DNA of 64,000 bases from an uncultured Pelagibacteraceae bacterium (GCA_902595535.1 CACJQI010000003.1:20383-84382); one strand, 5' to 3'. Counted from the first letter of the stretch, positions 101 to 25,922 are shown. Program-made: numbers and translations. Notes: a model not told the origin generated them from the letters alone.

Positions 101-1426
101 TTAAATTTTTTTAATTTTTAATTTACCAGTAACACCTAATGAAATTAAATTGTCTTTATATTCTTTAATTAAGTTTAATTTTTTAATTTTTTTTTTTATT
201 AAAAAATCAATCTTTTCTATTGCAGTATTTAAAAAAGTTACTATTTCTTTTTGTTCATCATTAGGTGGTAAGAAAACTATTAAATTATTTATTGTACCTA
301 ATGATATAAATGGTTGTCCTGTTTGATTTATTTCATTATTAATTATTCCTCTATATTTAAGCATTAACATCCAATAATGAATAAATTCATTGTTATGTCT
401 TTCAGATATTTTTAATTTACAACAATTTCCAGAGATAACAGACGGGTTATCTAGTTTAGGAAGGATTGCTGAGATTCCACAATCTCCAATTTTTGCAATA
501 ATTATATCATTTTCATTACACTCACTTCTTTTTATTTTTTTAAAATGATTTTTTGATATTTTTTTAAATTCTCTCTTTCTATTATTAAAATTACCCTCAT
601 AAAGAAAACCACTTTCTATGACAATAATTTCACCATTTTCATCATAATGTTCACTTTTTAAATCAGATCCGAATGGTCCATCAACAAGAGAATATTTATC
701 TTCAGATTTTATAAATTTAATTTTAGAAATTTTCCAATTTATGGGTATTTTTTTAATTAAATCTAAATTTGTATCTTTCAAATCTTTTTTATTTTCAAAA
801 CTTTTTGTGGTGTAATTAATTATAAGTGATTTTTTTTTCTCCTTTAGAAGGTCGATTTCTTTTTTTAGATTCAAAATTAATTTATTAATAATATTTACTT
901 TTTTATCAAGGTAGTTTGATATGAGTTTTTGATCATTATGTGGAGGAAATGGAAAGTTCATTGAACTCCACATATTCCATCTAAAGTCAGTAGTTCTTTC
1001 TCTAATACCTTTTGCAAGTGAGGTTATTTTTCCAGACTTGGACATGTGCTTAAGGAGGTAAAAAATATATTTCAGTTCAACTCCATCACTTGGTTCTATA
1101 ACAGTATATACTGGTGTGGACTTACCTTTTGAGTCAGAAATACCCATGGCACCTGCAAAACTATCCATTTCATGTATTACCAAATCACCAGGTCTTATTT
1201 GTTGATATCCATGTTCTTTTAAAGAATTTGTAAATCCGTCTTTTTTTTTGTTTTTTCTTAATGTTACAGTCCCATCTCTAAAGCAAGTTACAACTTCATC
1301 AACTTCATCAATTGCCCTTGTAACACGATTTAATTTAAATTTAGGTTTGGCAATTTCCCAATTATTTGGAACTACACCGATCCAATCGATGCCAGTTTCT
1401 TTATAATTTAAATTTTTTTTTACCAT
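101..1426 (-). CDS. hsdS: Type I RM specificity subunit
   Basis: Two TRD-plus-conserved-helix halves: YKETGIDWIGVVPNNW / LKDTNLDLIKKIPINW and FPPHNDQKLISNYLD / LPPNDEQKEIVTFLN. Ends GVTGKL. Overlaps hsdM. Confidence 0.93.
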   Translation of the reverse strand: MVKKNLNYKETGIDWIGVVPNNWEIAKPKFKLNRVTRAIDEVDEVVTCFRDGTVTLRKNKKKDGFTNSLKEHGYQQIRPGDLVIHEMDSFAGAMGISDSKGKSTPVYTVIEPSDGVELKYIFYLLKHMSKSGKITSLAKGIRERTTDFRWNMWSSMNFPFPPHNDQKLISNYLDKKVNIINKLILNLKKEIDLLKEKKKSLIINYTTKSFENKKDLKDTNLDLIKKIPINWKISKIKFIKSEDKYSLVDGPFGSDLKSEHYDENGEIIVIESGFLYEGNFNNRKREFKKISKNHFKKIKRSECNENDIIIAKIGDCGISAILPKLDNPSVISGNCCKLKISERHNNEFIHYWMLMLKYRGIINNEINQTGQPFISLGTINNLIVFLPPNDEQKEIVTFLNTAIEKIDFLIKKKIKKLNLIKEYKDNLISLGVTGKLKIKKI

Positions 1427-3123
1427 AATTCCTTAGACAACTTTTCCGACTCTTCGTCTATTTTTTTTAGTTCCGAAACAATTTCATCTAGATTTCTAAT
1501 TTTTGATAATTTAAAAAAGTATTTTTTAAAATTAATTTCATATCCTATTTTATTTTTTGAATTATCCATAAAAGCATCTGGTACATGTTCAAGTACTTCT
1601 TTTTTAAAAAATTCACTGATATCTTCTTCTAAAGGAATTCTCTCAATATCTCTTTTGGATATATCAGGTTTTATTTGTCCCTTTTTATCTTTTTTTACTT
1701 TTTGACCTTCATACATTGGTCTATCAACAATAACTTTTGTGTAACCAAATGAAATATTAGGTAAAATTTTTGATATTTCACTCTCTTCAAAATTTTTATA
1801 AATCTCAGATAATTCACTGATTTGATCATCGGAAATATAATAACCTTTTTCACCAAGATTTTTTGTTAATGATTTAAAAAAACTCTCACCATTGATTAAT
1901 TGGATTTTATTTTTTCTCAATTTCAATTTTTTATTACTTAAAATCCATATGTATGTAGAAATGCCTGTATTAAAAAACATTTTTTCAGGGAGGGATATAA
2001 TACACTCAAGTAGGTCTTTTTGAATTATCCATTTTCTTATTTCGGACTCACCACTTCCCGCGTCACCAATGAATAGGGGAGATCCATTAAAAATAATTCC
2101 CACCCTAGAACCTTTAGGTTCCATTTTACTGATTAAATGTTGTAAAAATAACAAAGAACCATCTGATGTTCTTGGTGTTCCTGCAAAAAATCTTCCTTCT
2201 GAATTTTTTGACTCATTTTTTACAAAATCTTCTTCTGCTTTCCAACTTACCCCAAATGGTGGATTGGTAACCATATAATCAAACTTTCTATCTTGATGAC
2301 CATCTTCAGATAATGATGAAAACGGACCTTTAATATTTTCAGGATTTTCATCTGCCATTAAAAAATCAGATTTACATATTGCATAAGTCACATCATTTAA
2401 TTCTTGTCCAAATAATTCCACTTTTAATCTTTTATTAATATTTTCATGTATCCATTCTTTTCCAATAGTTAACATTCCACCTGTTCCACAGCATGGATCA
2501 TAAATTGATCTAATTTTATCCTCACCTTTTAGATTTTCTTTATCTCCACCAAAGACGAGGGATACTAAAAGTTTAACAATATCTCTTGGTGTAAAATGAT
2601 CTCCACTTTCTTCATTAGACATCTCTGAGAATTTTCGTAAAAGTTCTTCATACAAAGAACCCATCTTGTGATTATCAACTTTATTAGGATGAAGATCAAA
2701 CTCTGTGAATTTGTCTATGAGAAGATAAAGTTTTTTATTTTTGTTTAATTTAGTTACCAAAGGATCTATTTGAAAATTCTCAATAATATCTAGTACATTT
2801 TTAGAGTAACCTTGAATATAATTGTTAAAATTTTTGTAAACATTGTTTGGGTCACTTTTAATTCTTAATAAATCAAATTTTGAGACATTAAAGAAAGGTA
2901 AGTTTAATTGACTTTGAATAACTTGATTAAAATCTTTTAATTTATTTTTATACTTTTCGTGTAATTCAAATGCCTTGTCTTTTTGAGGATCTAGTACACA
3001 GTCTAATCGTCTAAGAACAACAAATGGAAGAATAATTCGACCATACTCACTAGGTTTGAATAGACCTCTTAATATATCATCTGCCGTGTTCCAAATTAAG
3101 GATGAAAGGTTTTGTTTTTCCAT
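1420..3123 (-). CDS. hsdM: Type I RM N6-adenine methyltransferase subunit
   Basis: N-terminal LIWNTADDILRG..YGRIILPF, SAM motif YDPCCGTGGML, catalytic NPPF, and HFTPRDIV. Confidence 0.95.
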   Translation of the reverse strand: MEKQNLSSLIWNTADDILRGLFKPSEYGRIILPFVVLRRLDCVLDPQKDKAFELHEKYKNKLKDFNQVIQSQLNLPFFNVSKFDLLRIKSDPNNVYKNFNNYIQGYSKNVLDIIENFQIDPLVTKLNKNKKLYLLIDKFTEFDLHPNKVDNHKMGSLYEELLRKFSEMSNEESGDHFTPRDIVKLLVSLVFGGDKENLKGEDKIRSIYDPCCGTGGMLTIGKEWIHENINKRLKVELFGQELNDVTYAICKSDFLMADENPENIKGPFSSLSEDGHQDRKFDYMVTNPPFGVSWKAEEDFVKNESKNSEGRFFAGTPRTSDGSLLFLQHLISKMEPKGSRVGIIFNGSPLFIGDAGSGESEIRKWIIQKDLLECIISLPEKMFFNTGISTYIWILSNKKLKLRKNKIQLINGESFFKSLTKNLGEKGYYISDDQISELSEIYKNFEESEISKILPNISFGYTKVIVDRPMYEGQKVKKDKKGQIKPDISKRDIERIPLEEDISEFFKKEVLEHVPDAFMDNSKNKIGYEINFKKYFFKLSKIRNLDEIVSELKKIDEESEKLSKELW

Positions 3124-3205: not shown

Positions 3206-3538
3206 TTAATCGCTATTCCAAGTAAATAAATCAGCATCAAAAGGTATGTTTCTAAATTTAAGTAAGATTTTATATTTTTCTAATCTTTCCTCTTTCTTAA
3301 ATTTCCCTAAATAATTGAGTATTTGATCATAAGTCAAACTCTTTAAGTATTTCTTTTTAACGTCAACATACTCCTCATAATCCATGCCACATATAGAGAA
3401 TTTTTTTTTGGGATCTATATGTTCTGCATAACTTATCGTATCTTTATTTTCACTTAGAACATCATAAAAATGAGCGATTTGATTATCTCTTTCAAAAAGG
3501 ATATCTCTTCTGAAATCAAACAGTTCTAATTGTTGCAT
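3206..3538 (-). CDS. Hypothetical cytoplasmic protein (110 aa), last gene of the cassette array
   Basis: Clean ORF with no recognised family. Starts MQQLELF. Confidence 0.7.
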   Translation of the reverse strand: MQQLELFDFRRDILFERDNQIAHFYDVLSENKDTISYAEHIDPKKKFSICGMDYEEYVDVKKKYLKSLTYDQILNYLGKFKKEERLEKYKILLKFRNIPFDADLFTWNSD

Positions 3539-3636: not shown

Positions 3637-3684
3637 TTTGAATTGCTTTTGAATTGCTTTAAATAGTGATGAAGAGTGATGAAG
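3637..3684. repeat. Tandem short repeats TTTGAATTGCT x2 and AGTGATGAAG x2
   Basis: Read directly at 3637-3658 and 3665-3684. Confidence 0.85.
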
Positions 3685-3767
3685 GAATTTTCAAAATGCT
3701 AAGTAAATCAAGTATAATTAGAAACCAGTATGAGAATGTAATCCCCATTGTTCTCAAACAAAAATTC

Positions 3768-3799
3768 AAAAAGGGCAGTTTTTACTGCCCTTTTTTTTT
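3768..3799. terminator. Intrinsic terminator-like hairpin, type A
   Basis: GGGCAGT-TTTT-ACTGCCC (3773-3790), with A5 before and T9 after. Confidence 0.8.
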
Positions 3800-3815: not shown

Positions 3816-3850
3816 TGCAATGAACTTTGCAATGAATGTTCAATGAACTT
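3816..3850 (+). repeat. 12-bp direct repeat array TGCAATGAACTT (3 units, last one degenerate)
   Basis: TGCAATGAACTT TGCAATGAATGT TCAATGAACTT. Confidence 0.9.
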
Positions 3851-4110
3851 TTGAGGGTCGCAAACTAGGTTATAATTAAGTCACTACTTTAAGGGATCTG
3901 TTTGGTAATCTATAAATGCAATAAAGATACTTAAAACTAAGGTCGCATTTAAATCAATTCCTAGAGTATTTTTTCGCAGATACAACACTTACTACTAATT
4001 ATATAGTTTTATATAAATAAGCATACTCTATGACAGACGAACACATAGAATATTTTAACTTTGAGATCGCATTTCTGCGTCTAGGTGGTCGCAAGAGTCT
4101 GACAACTAAC

Positions 4111-4530
4111 TTATTTTTTTACAAACTTACAAGTAGATACAAATTTTTTTGCACGCTCATTAAATATACCATTTTTTTCATAAAGGTTTATATAAAGTTT
4201 CATTTCTTTAAAATCTACAAACATATCGTACGCTCTTGCATTATCCGCAACTAAAGAATATATGTGATATGTTTCTGAATTTACCAATTGAAAACCTGAA
4301 GGAAATTTTTCCCAGTCAGGGATTTGTACGCCATCTATTTCATAAAAATATGATTTTCCTAAATCATTAGTTCTATTGTAATCAATCTTAAAAACAAAAT
4401 TTTTCGGTTTAAACCAGTCTGGATCATGATCTTTTACATCGCAATATAAATATTTAACTCCTTGAATATCTGCTAATCCAATATTAAACCAAGATAAAAA
4501 TATAAAGATGTATAGAGATAGTTTCTTCAT
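4111..4530 (-). CDS. Hypothetical secreted protein (cassette cargo)
   Basis: Signal peptide MKKLSLYIFIFLSWFNIGLA, shared with the 6289-6882 gene. Mature part is unrelated to it and has 2 Cys. Confidence 0.8.
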   Translation of the reverse strand: MKKLSLYIFIFLSWFNIGLADIQGVKYLYCDVKDHDPDWFKPKNFVFKIDYNRTNDLGKSYFYEIDGVQIPDWEKFPSGFQLVNSETYHIYSLVADNARAYDMFVDFKEMKLYINLYEKNGIFNERAKKFVSTCKFVKK

Positions 4531-4606
4531 AGAACTATTTTAACCCAACTCCTCAATGAAGTCACCTTTCTACTTGCTTTCTATTTGAGGCGATTCTGCA
4601 ATGAAC
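4527..4606 (-). repeat. Conserved cassette leader, copy 1 (includes uORF 4527-4565 and a 12-mer at 4597)
   Basis: Plus-strand text aacccaactcctcaatgaagtcacctttctacttgctttctatttgaggcgattctgcaatgaac is homologous to the copies at 5695, 6883 and 7379. Confidence 0.9.
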
Positions 4607-4609
4607 TTC

Positions 4610-4653
4610 TTAAATAAGTGAGTATTGGCAAACTAGGAATGCGAATGTAATCG
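4610..4653 (+). promoter_or_regulatory. Conserved core box with putative sigma70 promoter TTGGCA-N17-TAATCG
   Basis: About 42 bp nearly identical in four copies (4610, 5787, 6185, 7475), with the 17-nt spacing kept in all four. Confidence 0.45.
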
Positions 4654-4674
4654 TTCCAACCCAAAACAAAATTC

Positions 4675-4704
4675 AAAAAGGCGAGTTTTTACTCGCCTTT
4701 TTTT
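4675..4704. terminator. Hairpin type A with compensatory changes
   Basis: GGCGAGT-TTTT-ACTCGCC (4680-4697) followed by T7. Two base pairs covary relative to GGGCAGT/ACTGCCC. Confidence 0.8.
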
Positions 4705-4722
4705 ATGCCTGTCATAAAAATT

Positions 4723-4752
4723 TGCAATGAAGTTTGCAATGAATGTTCAATG
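4723..4752 (+). repeat. 12-bp direct repeat array
   Basis: TGCAATGAAGTT TGCAATGAATGT TCAATG. Confidence 0.9.
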
Positions 4753-4787
4753 TCGGTTGCTTCGTTAATTAATTTAATTAATTTTTT

Positions 4788-4967
4788 TTAATATTTTGAT
4801 GTAATTAAGAAAAATTTGATAACAAGAAATATAAATATCAAACTACCAGCAACAAATATGCGTATACTATCTCCATTAGTACCTTTTTTTTTATAATAAT
4901 CATGAATTTTTCGATCTACTGAAACTCCAATAGCAATCATAACTATTAAAACTAACCAATTGTCCAT
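4788..4967 (-). CDS. Small two-TM membrane protein (59 aa), missing from the ORF track
   Basis: Manual translation: MDNWLVLIVMIAIGVSVDRKIHDYYKKKGTNGDSIRIFVAGSLIFIFLVIKFFLITSKY*. Has an upstream promoter-like sequence. Confidence 0.65.
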   Translation of the reverse strand: MDNWLVLIVMIAIGVSVDRKIHDYYKKKGTNGDSIRIFVAGSLIFIFLVIKFFLITSKY

Positions 4968-4997
4968 TATAAGTAATTAAAAATAAAATTTTTATAG

Positions 4998-5026
4998 AGT
5001 ATACAATATTATTATGTGTATGTGAA
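4998..5026 (-). promoter_or_regulatory. Putative sigma70 promoter for the 59-aa ORF
   Basis: Minus strand TTCACA (5026-5021), 17 nt, TATACT (5003-4998). Confidence 0.5.
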
Positions 5027-5098
5027 TGTAATCTCCTTCCAACAGTCTAATTACCTAGAAAAATTTAAACCCTCGAAATGAAAATTTTGGAGTTTTTT
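5024..5098 (+). repeat. ~75-bp direct repeat, copy 1 (with type B hairpin)
   Basis: gaatgtaatctccttccaacagtctaattacctagaaaaatttaaaccctcgaaatgaaaattttgg is identical to 5820 onward. Confidence 0.92.
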
Positions 5099-5104
5099 AT
5101 TTAA

Positions 5105-5695
5105 TTAATAATTGCGCAACCAATCATCCACTTCTTTTGTTGAAATTGTAACAGAAAGGGCGTCTGTCCAATTATTTTTAATTTTTAAACTTTTTTCATA
5201 TTCTGCACAAGAAACCGTAATTGTATATCCTAAATCAAAATTGAATTGGACATTATGAATATTACTTTTACCAGTAGAATCCCATGGAAATAAATGAGTT
5301 TCTTCACCTATTATATAGTTTTTATATAATTCAGAAAATTCTTTTACAATTTCTTTTTGTTGTGCATAACATTGTTTTATTTTATCGTCATATATAACTG
5401 ACCCTCTAATCGAATAAATTATATAATTTTTGTCGTTTGGTTTTACAAAAAAAGACAAGTCATCGTAAATTTTAAATTTATCATATAAATATACTTCCCC
5501 AAAATCTTCGGTTAGATAATTGTACGCGGGTTTGTTTTTTTCTATTTGAGTTATTATTTTTTCTTCGGACATATGTCGCAATAAAGTGTCTCCAATACTT
5601 ATCCCTTCAATTTCAAAATCTTGGACATCATCACCAAGAGATGGTGCTGAGAAACTAAAGAGAATTAAAAACAAGTAAGTAGATAGTTTTTTCAT
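5105..5695 (-). CDS. Hypothetical secreted protein, paralog of 6289-6882
   Basis: Likely start is the ATG at 5695 (MKKLSTYLFLILFSFSAPSLG). Mature domain DDVQDFEIEGISIGDTLL...SVTISTKEVDDWL aligns end to end with the paralog. Confidence 0.85.
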   Translation of the reverse strand: MKKLSTYLFLILFSFSAPSLGDDVQDFEIEGISIGDTLLRHMSEEKIITQIEKNKPAYNYLTEDFGEVYLYDKFKIYDDLSFFVKPNDKNYIIYSIRGSVIYDDKIKQCYAQQKEIVKEFSELYKNYIIGEETHLFPWDSTGKSNIHNVQFNFDLGYTITVSCAEYEKSLKIKNNWTDALSVTISTKEVDDWLRNY

Positions 5696-5785
5696 CAAAC
5701 CCATTTTATCCCACTCTTCAATGAAGTCACCTTTCTGTTTGCTTTCTATTTGGGGTGATTCTGCAATGAACTTTGCAATGAACTT
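5695..5785 (-). repeat. Conserved cassette leader, copy 2 (uORF 5695-5730; 12-mers at 5762 and 5774)
   Basis: Direct sequence homology to the other leader copies. Confidence 0.9.
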
Positions 5786-5786
5786 C

Positions 5787-5830
5787 TTAAATAAGTAAGT
5801 ATTGGCGTACTATGAATACGAATGTAATCT
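5787..5830 (+). promoter_or_regulatory. Core box, putative promoter TTGGCG-N17-TAATCT
   Basis: -35 at 5802-5807 and -10 at 5825-5830. Confidence 0.5.
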
Positions 5831-5897
5831 CCTTCCAACAGTCTAATTACCTAGAAAAATTTAAACCCTCGAAATGAAAATTTTGGGGGTTTTTTTT
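5820..5897 (+). repeat. ~75-bp direct repeat, copy 2, with type B hairpin/terminator
   Basis: AAACCCTCGAAAT-GAAA-ATTTTGGGGGTTT followed by a T-run. It pairs fully only on the plus strand (two G-U wobbles, GNRA loop). Confidence 0.9.
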
Positions 5898-5900
5898 AAC

Positions 5901-6128
5901 TTATTTTTTTTTTTCAATTGCTGCGATGATTCCGTACCCAGCAAAACAAATAGCAAAAATTACCCACCAAAGCATCGCTGAAACTTCATGTATTGAAGTT
6001 TTTGCTTCATCAAGAGTAAAAACTCCTCCTATAAAAGATAAAAATGATATTGCAGCAAGTATATACTTGAACATATTTCCTTTTATTTTTTCTAAACTAA
6101 CTCTAACCCAAATCAAAAACAAAGTCAT
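5901..6128 (-). CDS. Small two-TM membrane protein (cassette cargo)
   Basis: Start at ATG 6128 (MTLFLIWVRVSL, a diverged leader fused in frame) or ATG 6074 (MFKYILAAISFL, SD AAAGGA). Two hydrophobic helices and a KKK tail. Confidence 0.7.
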   Translation of the reverse strand: MTLFLIWVRVSLEKIKGNMFKYILAAISFLSFIGGVFTLDEAKTSIHEVSAMLWWVIFAICFAGYGIIAAIEKKK

Positions 6129-6159
6129 CTTCTCATACCCTTCTCGTTTCGTCTGATTC

Positions 6160-6228
6160 TGCAGTGAACTTTGCAATGAACTTCTTAAATAAGTGAGTAT
6201 TGGCGTACTATGAATGCGAATGTAATCC
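6160..6228 (+). repeat. 12-mer pair (6160, 6172) plus core box copy with TTGGCG-N17-TAATCC
   Basis: tgcagtgaactttgcaatgaacttcttaaataagtgagtattggcgtactatgaatgcgaatgtaatcc. Confidence 0.88.
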
Positions 6229-6252
6229 CGTTTATTTAGACCTAAAAATTAT

Positions 6253-6290
6253 AAAACCCCCGTTGTTAAACACTTCGGGGTTTTTTTTTT
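6253..6290. terminator. Hairpin type C
   Basis: AAAACCCCCG...CGGGGTTTT followed by a long T-run, abutting the stop codon of 6289-6882. Confidence 0.7.
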
Positions 6291-6882
6291 AATTAATGTG
6301 ATTTCTCAACCAATCCATTACTTCCTTTTTTGAAATTGAAACAGAGAGATTGTCTTGCCAATTATTTTGAATTTTTAGATTTTTTTCATATTCCGCACAA
6401 GAAACTGTAATTACATCACCTGAATTAAAAGTAAAAATGATATTTAGAACATGACTTTTACCAGTAGGATCCCATGGAAACACAAATTTGTCTTCTTCTT
6501 TTCTAGTATTCTTATACAATAAAGAAAATTCTTCTACGATTTCTTTTTGCTTTGCATAACATTTTTCAATGTTATCATCATAAAAAACTGCTCCTCTTAC
6601 ATCGTAGATCATATAATTTTTGTCATTTGATTTTACAAAAAATGATAAAACTTCATAAATTTTAAAATTACCCCTTAAATATACTTCTCCAAATTCATCA
6701 GTTAAATAATTGTATGCAGATTTGTTCACTGCTATTTCATTTGCTATTTCTTCCTTGGACAGATGGTCTAATAAACTATCGCCTATACTAATTCCCTCAA
6801 TCTGATATTCGGATATTTCATCAGCAAAACCAAAATTGCACCACATCAAAACCAAAAAGATGTATAGAGGTAGTTTTTTCAC
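6289..6882 (-). CDS. Hypothetical secreted protein, paralog of 5105-5695
   Basis: GTG at 6882 gives (V)KKLPLYIFLVLMWCNFGFA-DEISEYQIEGISIGDSLL. The frame is open back to 6918 through the fused leader uORF. Confidence 0.85.
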   Translation of the reverse strand: MKKLPLYIFLVLMWCNFGFADEISEYQIEGISIGDSLLDHLSKEEIANEIAVNKSAYNYLTDEFGEVYLRGNFKIYEVLSFFVKSNDKNYMIYDVRGAVFYDDNIEKCYAKQKEIVEEFSLLYKNTRKEEDKFVFPWDPTGKSHVLNIIFTFNSGDVITVSCAEYEKNLKIQNNWQDNLSVSISKKEVMDWLRNHIN

Positions 6883-6950
6883 GAAACTCAGTTTAACCCC
6901 GCTCTTCAATGATGTCACCTTTCTATTTGGGGTGATTCTGCAGTGAAGTT
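6883..6950 (-). repeat. Conserved cassette leader, copy 3 (11-nt deletion; 12-mer at 6939)
   Basis: Lacks gtttgctttct between the two ctttct direct repeats present in copy 2. Confidence 0.88.
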
Positions 6951-7028
6951 TTTAAAAAGATTAGTGTTTATGCGACCAGTATGCGAATGTAGTGAGAATA
7001 TAATCGTTCGTACTCATTTAAAAATTCT

Positions 7029-7083
7029 AAAAGGGCAGTTTTTACTGCCCTTTTTTTTACCCGAAACAAAAATCTGCAATGAA
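7029..7083 (+). repeat. Type A hairpin plus acccgaaacaaaaatcTGCAATGAA, a near-exact repeat of 3769-3824
   Basis: Differs only in T-run length. GGGCAGT (7033-7039) / ACTGCCC (7044-7050). Confidence 0.9.
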
Positions 7084-7133
7084 GTTTTAAGATAGTTAGA
7101 ACACATCGATAACAATAACAAGATCAACTTGTA

Positions 7134-7379
7134 CTATTGTCCATTATTACATTTATATCCATATTGATTGCATAGAGTCACTCTATAAACTTCATTACTA
7201 TACGCCTCTGCTTTGGAAAATAGTCCTTGACCTGTCATTGGAAGTGCGTGCAATAAGACACCCACTGCAAATACACCAAGAATTATTTTAACAGATCTTT
7301 CTAATTTAATCTCGTATTTAACGGTTTTCATATTTCTTCCTTTCAAACTTTGGTCAATTATATTGTAAAGTTTTTTCAT
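7134..7379 (-). CDS. Small single-TM/secreted protein (cassette cargo)
   Basis: ATG 7379 (MKKLYN, a degenerate shared start) or internal ATG 7331 with SD GAAAGGAAG (MKTVKYEIKLERSVKIILGVFAVGVLLHALP). C-terminal CNQYGYKC. Confidence 0.7.
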   Translation of the reverse strand: MKKLYNIIDQSLKGRNMKTVKYEIKLERSVKIILGVFAVGVLLHALPMTGQGLFSKAEAYSNEVYRVTLCNQYGYKCNNGQ

Positions 7380-7518
7380 CAAACCATTTTAACCCCACTC
7401 CTCAACGAAGTCATCTTTCTACTTGCTTTCTAATTGAACAGTTTTATCAATGAACTTTGCAATGAACTTCTTACTTAAATAAGTGAGTATTGGCGTACTA
7501 GGAATACGAATGTAACCG
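7379..7518 (-). repeat. Conserved leader copy 4, 12-mers (7447, 7458) and core box (TTGGCG-N17-TAACCG on plus strand)
   Basis: Direct homology to copies 1-3. Confidence 0.88.
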
Positions 7519-7542
7519 TTCTTACTCAAAACAAAATTCTAT

Positions 7543-7569
7543 AAGGGCAGTTTTTACTGCCCATTTTTT
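7543..7569. terminator. Hairpin type A
   Basis: GGGCAGT-TTTT-ACTGCCC (7545-7562) followed by ATTTTTT. Confidence 0.75.
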
Positions 7570-8237: not shown

Positions 8238-8351
8238 ATGTCAAAAAGATATAGTGGAAAATCATTTAAAGACTCAAGCGTTAGTAAAAAACCAAAATTG
8301 AGTCTTAAAGAAAAAAGAAAAATAAAAAAAGAAAAAGCTAAAAAATCTTAA
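8238..8351 (+). CDS. Putative small basic protein (37 aa), missing from the ORF track
   Basis: Manual translation MSKRYSGKSFKDSSVSKKPKLSLKEKRKIKKEKAKKS*. Fills the gap between hupE and the convergent helicase. Confidence 0.45.
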   Translation: MSKRYSGKSFKDSSVSKKPKLSLKEKRKIKKEKAKKS

Positions 8352-24611: not shown

Positions 24612-25922
24612 ATGCTTGATAATTATTTCAATTATAAAAAACACAATACAGATTTCAAAACAGAGGTAATAGCTGGAACAACTACGTTCTTAACCATGGC
24701 TTATATAATGTTTTTAAATCCATTTATCTTATCGGGAGAATTTGCCGGACCCGAAAAAGGTTTCTTTGATTTCGGCGCAGTGTATACCGCAACAATATTA
24801 GCAACGGCATTAGCATGTTTTATAATGGCTTTTTATGGAAAAACTTGGCCAATTGGACTTGCACCTGGTATGGGAATTAACGCATTTGTTGCTTTTGGAG
24901 TTTGTGCAGGAATGGGTTACACACCCCAGGAAGCTTTAGGCGCAGTGTTAGTTGCCGGTGTATTATTTTTAATTATATCTCTTACACCTATTAGAGCTTG
25001 GCTAATTAACTCAATTCCTAAAAGTCTTAAATTAGGTATTGGAGCTGGAATTGGATTGTTCTTAGCAATAATTGGTCTTCAAATAATGGAAGTTGTTGTA
25101 GATAATCCAGTAACATTAGTTCAACTAGGAGACTTAAGTAACCCTCTAGTCTTATTAGGTTGTGCAACTTTCATTGCAATTATCGTATTAGAAAAAATGA
25201 ATGTAAAGGGAAATATTATTATAGGAATTTTAGTATTTAGTATCATTGCGTGGGCAACAGGTCTTGCTAAATTTAATGGTATAGCAAGTTCGCCACCACC
25301 AATGACATATTTATTTGAGTTTGACTTATCAGCTGCAATGACTGCTGGAATGTCTACTGTAATATTTACTTTATTGTTCATTGACTTTTTTGACACAGCT
25401 GGAACGTTAACTTCAGTTGCAAACGTTGCAGGTAAAGTTGACAAACAGGGAAAAGTTCAAGACATCAATAAAGCTATGTTGTCTGATAGTGTTGGAACAG
25501 TTGCGGGTGCAATGATGGGAACTACAACTGTTACAAGTTATGTTGAGTCTGGAGCTGGTGTTAAAGCTGGTGGAAAAACTGGGATGACATCTCTTGTAAT
25601 TGGTTTGCTATTTTTAGCGTGTATATTTTTTGCTCCTTTAGCAACAAGTTTACCAAAACAAATTGATGGTGCTGCCTTACTTTTTGTTTCAGTTCTATTT
25701 ATAAGAAATATTACTGACATTGAGTGGAATGACATATCTGAGTCTGCTCCTGCTATACTTGCAATGATTGCAATGCCTTTAACTTACAGTATTAGTAATG
25801 GTATTGCCTTAGCTTTTGTATCTTATGCTTTAATCAAATTATTTACTGGAAAGTTTTCAAGCACTTCGCCAGCAATTTGGGTTATAGCGATACTAAGTGT
25901 TGTAAGTTTTGCGGTTGCTTAA
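24612..25922 (+). CDS. NCS2/AzgA family purine permease
   Basis: AGTTTFLTMAYI, LAPGMGINAF, DFFDTAGT, SYVESGAGV. Confidence 0.92.
   Translation: MLDNYFNYKKHNTDFKTEVIAGTTTFLTMAYIMFLNPFILSGEFAGPEKGFFDFGAVYTATILATALACFIMAFYGKTWPIGLAPGMGINAFVAFGVCAGMGYTPQEALGAVLVAGVLFLIISLTPIRAWLINSIPKSLKLGIGAGIGLFLAIIGLQIMEVVVDNPVTLVQLGDLSNPLVLLGCATFIAIIVLEKMNVKGNIIIGILVFSIIAWATGLAKFNGIASSPPPMTYLFEFDLSAAMTAGMSTVIFTLLFIDFFDTAGTLTSVANVAGKVDKQGKVQDINKAMLSDSVGTVAGAMMGTTTVTSYVESGAGVKAGGKTGMTSLVIGLLFLACIFFAPLATSLPKQIDGAALLFVSVLFIRNITDIEWNDISESAPAILAMIAMPLTYSISNGIALAFVSYALIKLFTGKFSSTSPAIWVIAILSVVSFAVA

Follow-up and report, generated by a model that had tools for sequence, protein, structure and literature searches.

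The stretch of DNA analyzed here, hereafter the window, comprises 64,000 nucleotides (nt) from an uncultured Pelagibacteraceae (SAR11) bacterium (GCA_902595535.1 CACJQI010000003.1:20383-84382). All genes between positions 101 and 7379 lie on the minus strand and form an island of head-to-tail cassettes. The open reading frames (ORFs) of these cassettes are small and match no Pfam family, and most of them start with the signal-peptide-like sequence MKKLSLYIFLVLMW. To the left of the cassettes lie a conserved hypothetical protein of 110 amino acids (aa) and the type I restriction-modification (R-M) pair hsdM/hsdS, and to the right hupE, a DEAD-box helicase gene and typA. The island is punctuated by short direct repeats, the 12-mers studied here, which a preliminary description of the sequence had taken for protein-binding or crossover sites marking the points where cassette homology switches. 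We consider that these 12-mers are probably arm-type recombinase-binding repeats within lambda-like attachment regions, belonging to integrative elements of Pelagibacter that insert serially at the last codons of groEL.

The sequence TGCARTGAA has 13 matches in the 64 kb of the window, against 1.95 ± 1.34 in dinucleotide-preserving shuffles of the window (n = 100), none of which reached 13. Twelve of these matches lie between 3816 and 7466, all on the plus strand (starts at 3816, 3828, 4597, 4723, 4735, 5762, 5774, 6160, 6172, 6939, 7075 and 7458), and the remaining one, a lone minus-strand match at 25170, is unrelated to the cluster. A search with the full 12-mer and two mismatches allowed recovered the identical cluster plus TCAATG variants. 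On the minus strand, which is the gene-coding strand, the unit reads AAGTTCATTGCA. Units are grouped as 1-3 per array with a period of 11-12 bp. The preliminary description was accurate in every motif position that it listed, in the single orientation, in this spacing, in the TCAATG variants at 3840, 4747 and 7447 (the one at 4747 being a truncated unit) and in the lack of a comparable cluster past 7.5 kb in the window. Its suggestion of helical phasing is weak, as the period ranges over 10-12 bp. Two features had been overlooked, namely an extra motif-like unit about 45 nt to the promoter side of each array (CAATGAAG at 4554, 5719 and 6907; CAACGAAG at 7403) and a variant array of two AGTGATGAAG units at 3665-3684.

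Alignment of the seven intergenic regions of the island revealed one shared modular plan. In order, it comprises a hairpin, about 25 nt, the sequence GATTACATTCGCATTC, about 30 nt, one or two repeat units (the 5' array), a purine-rich stretch of about 45 nt (P1R), GGTGACTTCATTGAGGAGTGGGGTTAAAAT, 6 nt and the ATG. The hairpin is either HP1 (GGGCAG-TAAAAA-CTGCCC) or of the C5/G5 type (HP2), and the stretch of about 30 nt that separates GATTACATTCGCATTC from the 5' array, CCAATACTCACTTATTTAAG, is referred to as P1L. A second kind of array, with 1-3 units, closes the upstream cassettes at their 3' ends, about 20 nt ahead of HP1 (3816-3850, 4723-4757 and 7075-7086). Within about 150 bp, arrays bracket the hairpin and the GATTACATTCGCATTC-type sequence at 3816-3850/3665-3684, 4723-4757/4597-4608 and 7075-7086/6939-6950, and likewise in many other loci; the bracketing noted earlier at 4597/4723 and 6939/7075 is borne out.

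A scan of 185,579 species genomes for tandem units returned 106 stretches, about 45 of them from single-cell or metagenome genomes of Pelagibacteraceae and the rest being single chance matches in unrelated taxa. Within SAR11, the tandem unit is confined to three module contexts. P1 is the window-type module. T1 consists of three units, then HP1, then GATTACATTC. P2 has a different leader of 155 nt and a P1-like plan, with two units, about 50 nt, and a third unit 28-29 nt before the ATG. In many genomes, the island of the window has the same chromosomal location, next to typA or yitT-like homologues.

Past the T1 hairpin, the sequence reads GATTACATTCCCATTCCACCCATTCC; in reverse complement, it encodes the GroEL C-terminus, ...GGMGGMGM-stop. 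Likewise, GATTACATTC(G/C)CATTC is the reverse complement of ...GGA ATG GGA ATG TAA at the end of groEL, and the ORF adjoining T1 is a Cpn60 member according to Pfam. A metatranscriptome contig links the GGM repeat with positions 3730-3777 of the window, hairpin included; other metatranscriptome contigs were uninformative, and no RNA run was found to contain the region. Because the T1 sequence continues as the reverse-complemented GroEL C-terminus, GATTACATTCGCATTC in every module of the window is, by its sequence, a remnant of the last 4-5 groEL codons and the stop, with one mismatch. Each remnant is preceded by a copy of the groEL-type terminator hairpin, and the actual groEL terminator is HP1 or HP2 depending on the lineage. 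The window itself stops short of groEL, and exact-protein look-ups of its HsdM and 199-aa protein matched no further contig.

An equivalent arrangement exists at the gene for transfer-messenger RNA (tmRNA), ssrA. P2 modules start with GGGGCGTTCTGTTGCC(C/A)GG, which corresponds in reverse complement to the alphaproteobacterial tmRNA gene at its 3' end, and ssrA is convergent to them at a distance of 0.6-4 kb. The ssrA island is a head-to-tail series in which each repeat consists of an ssrA-end copy, the P2 leader with 2+1 units and one ORF. A single locus can contain as many as eight direct copies of the final ~20 nt of this gene, each bounding a cassette (L011 1799-6243, L020, L021, L060, L104); some of these copies come with a P2 leader, and others are longer copies of the tmRNA end. 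Among 22 aligned P2 modules, conservation is greatest in the ssrA copy, in the tandem units and in the third unit, and it collapses just to the left of the ssrA copy. When ssrA loci were compared for indels, the breakpoints were mixed and did not consistently fall at the ssrA copy. An Rfam scan of the window and 36 loci detected no RNA family at the modules, and elsewhere tmRNA, one tRNA and a SAM-V riboswitch. As regards viruses, the tandem motif gave only chance matches in viral contigs, all of high GC content, the T1 module had no blastn match in phage records, and the ssrA core retrieved from viral and phage records only tmRNAs, phage- or host-borne, of other lineages and no SAR11 attP.

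The order of parts at the junctions is informative. Where it adjoins intact groEL, a junction has the cargo first, then the 3' array, the hairpin and groEL. The junction of the distal border (module A of the window, 7566-7379; L016 and L325) starts in the flank and continues with hairpin, remnant, P1L and 5' array. Internal junctions carry both halves. These three kinds are the B-O-P' / P-O-P' / P-O-B' pattern expected of serial site-specific integration, at one chromosomal core, of circular elements that each have a single attachment region. On this serial-integration reading, the window would hold seven elements (Table 1).

The preliminary description had placed the homology switch, and possibly the crossover, at the 12-mer, a claim that holds only in part and is for the most part not supported. 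The left edge of the 3-unit module is indeed a sharp homology boundary, but the copy at 6155 retains weak similarity past its array and the flanks of arrays are tightly linked across SAR11 loci (P1L-P1R 24, P2L-P2R at least 26, variable-T1R 13; one chimera, L030). Endpoints of pairwise high-scoring segment pairs fall within a few bases of array edges in 28% of left ends and 52% of right ends, a pile-up that we discounted because it stems mostly from the array being the sole sequence common to the P1, P2 and T1 families. The main crossover appears to be marked by the duplicated groEL or ssrA remnant, the identity block located some 45-75 nt from the arrays, and not by the 12-mer. Gene-specific sequence begins beside the arrays because these are the outermost conserved parts of the attachment region. 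On the other hand, three solo junctions among about 190 inspected (L030, L191 and L296, the latter two from the metagenome sample) have the order remnant-P1L-array-T1R-hairpin-groEL, the form expected after deletion of cargo between the 5' and the 3' array. Hence, array-by-array recombination happens, although rarely.

Array variants were surveyed in metagenome contigs picked by the HP1 hairpin alone, which yielded 120 loci unbiased as to units. In this sample, a 5' array follows the remnant in 32 of the 39 assessable cases, and a 3' array precedes the hairpin in ~43% of cases. At least seven unit variants occupy equal positions (TTCATTG, TTCATC, TTCACTG, ACATTG, TACATC, TTCATTAC, TTCATA and others), and the units inside one array are near-identical to each other. 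Within an element, the 5' and the 3' array were of one variant in 18 of 22 pairs, against a permutation mean of 9.1 (p<5e-5; 0 of 20,000 permutations reach 18), a p-value that overstates the evidence because the pairs are not phylogenetically independent. For neighboring elements, arrays separated by ~130 nt at a junction agreed in 8 of 22 cases, no more than chance would allow (5.4 expected, p=0.12). Matched 5' and 3' arrays are exemplified by L072 (GACATTGCA), L104 (TTCAATGTA, in a three-gene element of the ssrA type) and L098 (TTCATTACT, two and four units).

The GGTGACTTCATTGAGGAGTGGGGTTAAAAT stretch scores as a GTGACT-N17-TAAAAT promoter that ends 5-7 nt before the start codon. Start codons 5-7 nt past a TAAAAT-like -10, with GTGACT/TTACAC 17 nt upstream, occur at 4537-4565, 5703-5730, 6890-6918 and 7386-7414, and in more than 40 cassettes of related loci. 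Since the promoter ends so close to the ATG, these consensus matches predict leaderless mRNAs for the cassette genes. The -35 element, GATGACTT, is unchanged where the distal arrays are of the TTCATC type, so the -35 unit does not track the arrays; in addition, internal promoters have the -35 unit without any array. The spacer between array and promoter holds a tandem repeat of its own, 11 nt long (TAGAAAGCAAG / CAGAAAGCAAA), at 4566-4596, 5731-5761, 6919-6938 and 7415-7445, and at 180-235 of L256 (flipped). It is present in one copy in module B, two in modules A, D and F, and four in L256, so that the distance from array to promoter shifts by steps of one helical turn.

The preliminary description had also proposed co-occurrence with a specific integrase as a check. 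In related loci, tyrosine integrases of about 400 aa lie convergent to the module of remnant and array, in most cases no more than 150 nt from it. Clustering of ORFs over all loci identified a 406-aa integrase in L276, a 398-aa relative in L256 (41% identical) and a fragment in L264. The Pfam Phage_integrase match is borderline (E=4.9e-6, 26.9 bits vs a cut-off of 27.1), and SAM-like core-binding matches are mostly sub-threshold, exceeding the cut-off only for L256. In the AlphaFold model (predicted local distance difference test, pLDDT, of 82), an extra N-terminal domain of four beta-strands and a helix, residues 4-70, precedes the core-binding and catalytic domains, and the best Foldseek matches are the Tn1549 integrase and full-length lambda integrase. 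The family comprises 221 homologues, from Pelagibacter wherever named, and genomic contexts were fetched for nine of them. In the contexts that show the module directly (L256, L308/L309, L313/L314, L322/L323 and L325), the int stop lies ~30-400 nt from P1R/5' array/P1L/remnant, in convergent orientation. In L306 and L307, both NCBI Pelagibacter genomes, an integrase element of 9-10 kb has the remnant and two TTCATTAC units on one side, and three TTCATTAC units, the hairpin and groEL on the other. Arms of this L306/L307 type also flank, at the corresponding place in L098, a two-gene element of 1.3 kb that has no integrase.

Integrase lineages mostly come with different arrays: group B (P0270, P0275; 66-67% identity to the L276 integrase) with TTCATCAC, group C (P0303, P0306, P0334; 62-63%) with TTCATTAC, group D (P0360; 58%) with GTACATCT, group E (P0351; 58%) with GTTCATCT and group F (L256; 41%) with TTCACTGCA. 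These five lineages with an array variant of their own rest on 1-4 loci each, a small and partly redundant sample. In group D, the integrase is co-directional near the 3' array, beside groEL. The arm of the seventh window element (two CTTCATCACT units, then AAAGCAATTCAAAAGCAATTCAAAAG) is of the type that adjoins group-B integrases in L313 and L325. In addition, an HU/IHF-like protein is encoded in one element, and a helix-turn-helix (HTH) protein lies between int and the 3' arm in another (L315); both are plausible accessory factors.

Our preferred interpretation, that of arm-type sites, builds on what is directly seen: the architecture, the target-end remnants, the junction pattern, the variation of arrays together with their matching within elements, and the three-domain integrase beside the same module. 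It favors one of the possibilities raised in the preliminary description, that of recombinase or accessory-factor arms, given that the arrays flank the groEL-end core on both sides, co-vary per element and adjoin an integrase in relatives. Read along the minus strand, an element would start with the groEL-end remnant, followed after ~30 nt by a 5' array of 1-2 units and, ~45 nt further on, by a promoter and the cargo; next would come a 3' array of 1-4 units, which is optional, and, ~20 nt on, the terminator hairpin with a spacer of ~25 nt. Were the element circular, its core would lie between the two arrays, just as the core of lambda attP lies between the P and P' arms. The N-terminal domain of the integrase, or an accessory protein encoded by the element, would bind the units as arm-type sites, and the bound units would bridge to the core, 45-75 nt away, to assemble the recombination complex. 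Elements would integrate at the groEL stop region or at the 3' end of ssrA, and the newest would adjoin groEL and supply its terminator. The seven elements of the window would be non-autonomous ones that kept their arms and are presumably still moved in trans by integrase-bearing relatives. Such small cassettes would carry a leaderless promoter and a secreted-protein gene in place of int, and the mobilization of each might require a helper with the matching type of arm.

Several results weigh against this interpretation. No integrase homologue was found in the 64-kb window, and a motif scan of the first 45 loci detected no integrase. Pfam gives no significant match for the N-terminal domain, whose alignment to the arm-binding domain of lambda is deduced from alignment length only. 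Within group A, the integrases of L276 and L310 share 91% identity and hardly differ in their N-terminal domains, yet their nearest 5' arrays differ (TTCATTGA vs TTCATCAC); in this group, a cargo gene separates int from the module. L077 combines a standard 5' array with a variant 3' array, and the 22 element pairs share ancestry, as noted above. Finally, 3' arrays are missing before ~57% of hairpins and in nearly all ssrA cassettes, a frequent lack which indicates that the P-arm array is not obligatory.

Among the alternatives, the one that survives best, though we regard it as unlikely, is that the units bind an accessory protein encoded by the elements, such as an excisionase or recombination directionality factor, a Cox/Apl-like regulator or a small HTH protein, which would shape the intasome and control the cassette promoter. 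Tandem direct repeats of 10-12 bp beside an att core and a promoter resemble the Cox boxes of phage P2 and the Apl sites of phage 186; moreover, L315 has its HTH gene between int and the 3' arm, and array types differ among the contexts of group A integrases. However, genes for such a protein are lacking in the small cassettes, the integrase lineages do not all come with a conserved small DNA-binding gene, and the three-domain integrase already supplies a candidate binding domain.

Less probable still, in our judgment, is that the arrays are simply short homology tracts, in which identity and not protein recognition matters and recombination between 5' and 3' arrays, by RecA, slippage or a recombinase, deletes or circularizes the cargo. 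Such a role would agree with the matching of arrays within elements, with a number of units that varies from 1 to 4, and with the solo junctions in L030, L191 and L296, which look like cargo deletions between arrays. Yet these junctions are rare (3 in ~190), over half of the elements miss the 3' array, ssrA cassettes have a 5' array only, and neither the repeated groEL/ssrA remnants nor the integrase beside the module would be explained.

We give somewhat less credence again to the units being operator or activator sites through which a host transcription factor, for example a response regulator of the OmpR/TorR type, acts on cassette promoters. In the P1 and P2 modules alike, two distal units plus one over the -35 lie at a constant 28-31 nt from the ATG, a layout that resembles the tor-box arrangement. 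On the contrary, the variation of the arrays next to a constant -35 argues against a host factor: with at least seven distal variants and the same GATGACTT, SAR11 would need many such factors. The 3' arrays lie before terminators and beside convergent groEL, where there is no promoter. In addition, array variation and within-element matching argue against 3' arrays being upstream sites of the next promoter, since they match the 5' array of their own cassette and not the promoter array of the next one downstream. Internal promoters, for their part, have a -35 unit without distal arrays. Hence, we did not find the single regulon-wide, promoter-positioned consensus that characterizes response-regulator operators. 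Very improbable is a role in RNA, in which an RNA-binding protein or a small RNA would bind UUCAUUG in the 5' and 3' untranslated regions: on the coding strand, the motif does lie both ahead of ORFs and shortly before terminators, but the -35/-10 right before the ATG predicts leaderless mRNAs that exclude the 5' array, no Rfam family matches, and the array variants speak against a common RNA-binding partner.

Other identities were rejected. The iteron-like sites suggested in the preliminary description are not supported, as neither the window nor the related loci have a rep gene or origin features of the plasmid type. Alphaproteobacterial LexA sites (GTTC-N7-GTTC), the Pho box, sigma-54 promoters, dif/Xer sites, ends of IS91 or IS200/IS605, DNA uptake sequences and Chi were each discarded on sequence, spacing or distribution.

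Table 1. Putative elements of the window and their parts, listed from the hupE side toward the hsdM/hsdS genes.
Feature	Position	Strand	Remarks
HP1 hairpin, distal border of the island beside hupE	7541..7566	-	no 3-unit array before it; B-O-P' type junction
Element 1, groEL-end remnant GGTTACATTCGTATTC, proposed att core copy	7502..7517	-	from groEL-end comparison
Element 1, 5' arm array, 2 units (AAGTTCATTGCA AAGTTCATTGAT)	7446..7469	-	P1L before it at 7474-7493
Element 1, promoter-like ATGACT-N17-TAAAAT and cargo ORF	7134..7414	-	promoter 7414-7386 with motif-like -35 unit; ORF of 81 aa, 7379-7134
Element 1, 3' arm array, 1 unit	7075..7086	-	~20 nt before HP1 at 7029-7054
Element 2, duplicated, degenerate groEL-end remnant (GATTATATTCTC + ACTACATTCGCATAC)	6979..7006	-	
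Element 2, 5' arm array, 1 unit (AACTTCACTGCA)	6939..6950	-	
Element 2, cargo ORF, 197 aa, secreted type	6882-6289	-	ends at HP2 hairpin 6256-6280
Element 3	6160..6227	-	remnant 6212-6227; P1L 6184-6203; 5' array of 2 units 6160-6183
Element 3, cargo, small membrane ORF	6128-5901	-	HP2 hairpin 5863-5892
Element 4	5762..5829	-	remnant 5814-5829; P1L 5786-5805; 5' array of 2 perfect units 5762-5785
Element 4, -35 unit	5719-5730	-	
Element 4, cargo ORF, 196 aa	5695-5105	-	paralogue of 6882-6289
Element 5	4788..5033	-	remnant only (5018-5033), no 5' array; 59-aa ORF 4967-4788
Element 5, own promoter-like TTCACA-N17-TATACT		-	
Element 5, 3' arm array, 2 full units and a truncated one	4723..4757	-	followed by HP1 variant (GGCGAG..CTCGCC) 4675-4702
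Element 6	4597..4652	-	remnant 4637-4652; P1L 4609-4628; 5' array of 1 unit 4597-4608
Element 6, -35 unit	4554-4565	-	
Element 6, cargo ORF, 139 aa	4530-4111	-	
Element 6, 3' arm array, 3 units, periods 11 and 12	3816..3850	-	followed by HP1 3768-3795
Element 7	3665..3743	-	remnant 3728-3743; variant 5' array, two CTTCATCACT, 3665-3684
Element 7, cargo: 110-aa ORF, hsdM + hsdS	3538-3206; 3123-101	-	runs off the window

Regarding the cargo, the cassette proteins share a conserved N-terminal signal peptide (MKKLSLYIFLVLMWCNVGFA) followed by complete divergence (4530-4111, 5695-5105 and 6882-6289 in the window; L011, L020, L231, L240 and L269). Of these, the 196-aa and the 197-aa ORF are paralogous to each other; they have over 1200 homologues and match no Pfam domain. 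In the last element of the window, the cargo at 101-3123 consists of hsdS (Methylase_S) and hsdM (N6_Mtase, HsdM_N), and a comparable R-M set is found in L256, within the integrase-bearing stretch of the groEL island. The 110-aa protein (3206-3538, minus strand) has 805 homologues at 72-95% identity; here it belongs to the groEL island, and in L011, L022, L027, L071, L088 and L100 to the ssrA island, in the opposite relative orientation. This protein was considered as a candidate binder of the units and dropped; it has no Pfam domain, an AlphaFold pLDDT of 69 and no fold match.

The stretch 3860-4110 contains no ORF, yet it is ~91% conserved in L004 and repeats GGTCGCA four times. A perfect TATAAT on the plus strand (3872-3877) abuts the 3-unit array, which is on the opposite strand, and in L016 the plus-strand promoter of this stretch drives a reverse-oriented secreted-protein gene. 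In the window, the stretch may be a decayed gene or a small RNA. By the border of the island, at 8238-8351, there is an extremely basic ORF of 37 aa (MSKRYSGKSFKDSSVSKKPKLSLKEKRKIKKEKAKKS) with conservation at the DNA level in L010, L078 and L087.

Integrase elements have a conserved backbone in common (L306 6134-9209, L310 3802-7221, L313 3492-7209, L315 782-6610), in which a serine recombinase (Resolvase) is divergent from a two-ORF operon and the tyrosine integrase. The two ORFs of the operon, of unknown function, have about 206-246 and 216-232 aa, and L315/L316 show several additional small ORFs between the resolvase and the int-adjacent ORF. The cargo of these elements (Cas4/helicase-like, HNH, DruA, DUF2779, MORN and type I R-M proteins) looks like defense genes. 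In L308 (3460-3720) and L309, the integrase lineage with the TTCATTAC arm, together with a remnant-like core, ATACATTCTCATTC, lies inside a glycosyltransferase island of the O-antigen type, which suggests the O-antigen island as a third insertion site. SAR11_0551 of strain HTCC1062 is named alongside this case, after PMC2217521.

SAR11 genomes are famous for their lack of obvious mobile elements in spite of a very large pool of flexible genes, and the 12-mers, most likely arm sites, would expose how one variable island of a SAR11 genome is built. If they are arm sites, they would offer a simple sequence handle on cassette borders, cassettes could be assigned to helper integrase lineages, insertions could be dated, with the newest beside groEL, and it could be tested directly whether site-specific recombination drives island turnover in natural populations. 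Moreover, a compact natural landing site with arms and promoter would be usable for genetics in a tool-poor organism. As a more tentative proposal, which we put forward as possible only, this may be an undescribed SAR11 system, integron-like in form and lambda-like in mechanism. Its integrase-less, promoter-bearing cassettes, each with a single gene for a secreted protein, would retain arm repeats specific to an integrase lineage, and rare helper elements with an integrase would act on them in trans, capturing, stacking and exchanging them at groEL and ssrA 3' ends and perhaps inside the O-antigen island. This would then be a major site-specific route of flexible-gene turnover in the most abundant marine bacterium.

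Earlier work on SAR11 bears on this proposal. Hypervariable regions are described there as having no attC signatures, with an integrase in hypervariable region 2 (Wilhelm et al., PMC2217521). In a study of flexible islands (PMC11796062), partial tRNA repeats are read as cassette insertions, one island is linked to tmRNA, almost no integrases are reported and exchange is ascribed mainly to homologous recombination. Those islands are like ours in organism group, conserved positions, units of one or two genes and excess of signal-peptide proteins, and unlike ours in that the searched text has no groEL-end remnants, 12-mer arrays or conserved junction module. Other reports describe tyrosine-recombinase regions in Pelagibacter particle DNA (PMC11876622) and a two-ended, tRNA-anchored hypervariable region (bioRxiv 10.64898/2026.04.03.716430). 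A groEL-end target, 12-mer arrays and a regular junction module are not mentioned in the SAR11 literature passages found, and a literature search with the exact motif string returned nothing relevant.

In phage lambda, the arm sites P1, P2 and P'1-P'3 of attP are bound by the N-terminal domain of Int, and the same principle applies to Tn916/Tn1549 and to mycobacteriophage L5. As in these systems, the SAR11 modules have tandem short direct repeats on both sides of the core, within about +/-100 bp, a core that is an identity block common to the chromosomal target, and, in one element, an HU/IHF-like gene; the int gene beside the attachment site in related loci, with its predicted extra N-terminal domain besides the core-binding and catalytic ones, may be a further likeness. 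Unlike them, the SAR11 elements target a protein gene, groEL, or ssrA, in each case at the 3' end, most elements are single-gene cassettes of 0.5-1.5 kb without int, the P-arm repeats are optional, all repeats have one orientation, and the repeat sequence differs between element lineages with a common core; arm binding is here predicted from sequence.

The tycheposons of Prochlorococcus are tyrosine-recombinase elements that integrate serially at one site, including tmRNA, each integration pushing older elements inward and leaving partial target copies between them (bioRxiv 10.1101/2020.12.28.424599). An additive island of this kind is found at ssrA and, by analogy, at groEL. Both systems occur in a streamlined marine bacterium and both leave degraded, integrase-less remnants. 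They differ in host and presumably in integrase family, and SAR11 uses the groEL 3' end, has arrays of single secreted-protein genes and a very regular junction module of 150-250 nt, and carries tandem repeats and a promoter in that module. Integrons and clusters of attC sites lacking integron-integrases (CALINs) are similar in their head-to-tail, mostly single-gene cassettes, in a conserved bounding module and in the frequent lack of an integrase nearby. However, the SAR11 modules consist of direct repeats and a simple terminator hairpin instead of the imperfect attC palindrome with R and L boxes, their place is at the 5' end of the gene, every cassette has a promoter of its own, and the integrase is of the arm-binding lambda/P4 type; attC R''-L''/L'-R' boxes, intI, attI, Pc and promoterless cassettes, which define an integron, are all lacking. 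By analogy, the nearest counterparts of the SAR11 modules would be the arm sites of lambda, Tn916/Tn1549 and L5 in mechanism, tycheposon accretion in the building of islands, and integron arrays in appearance.

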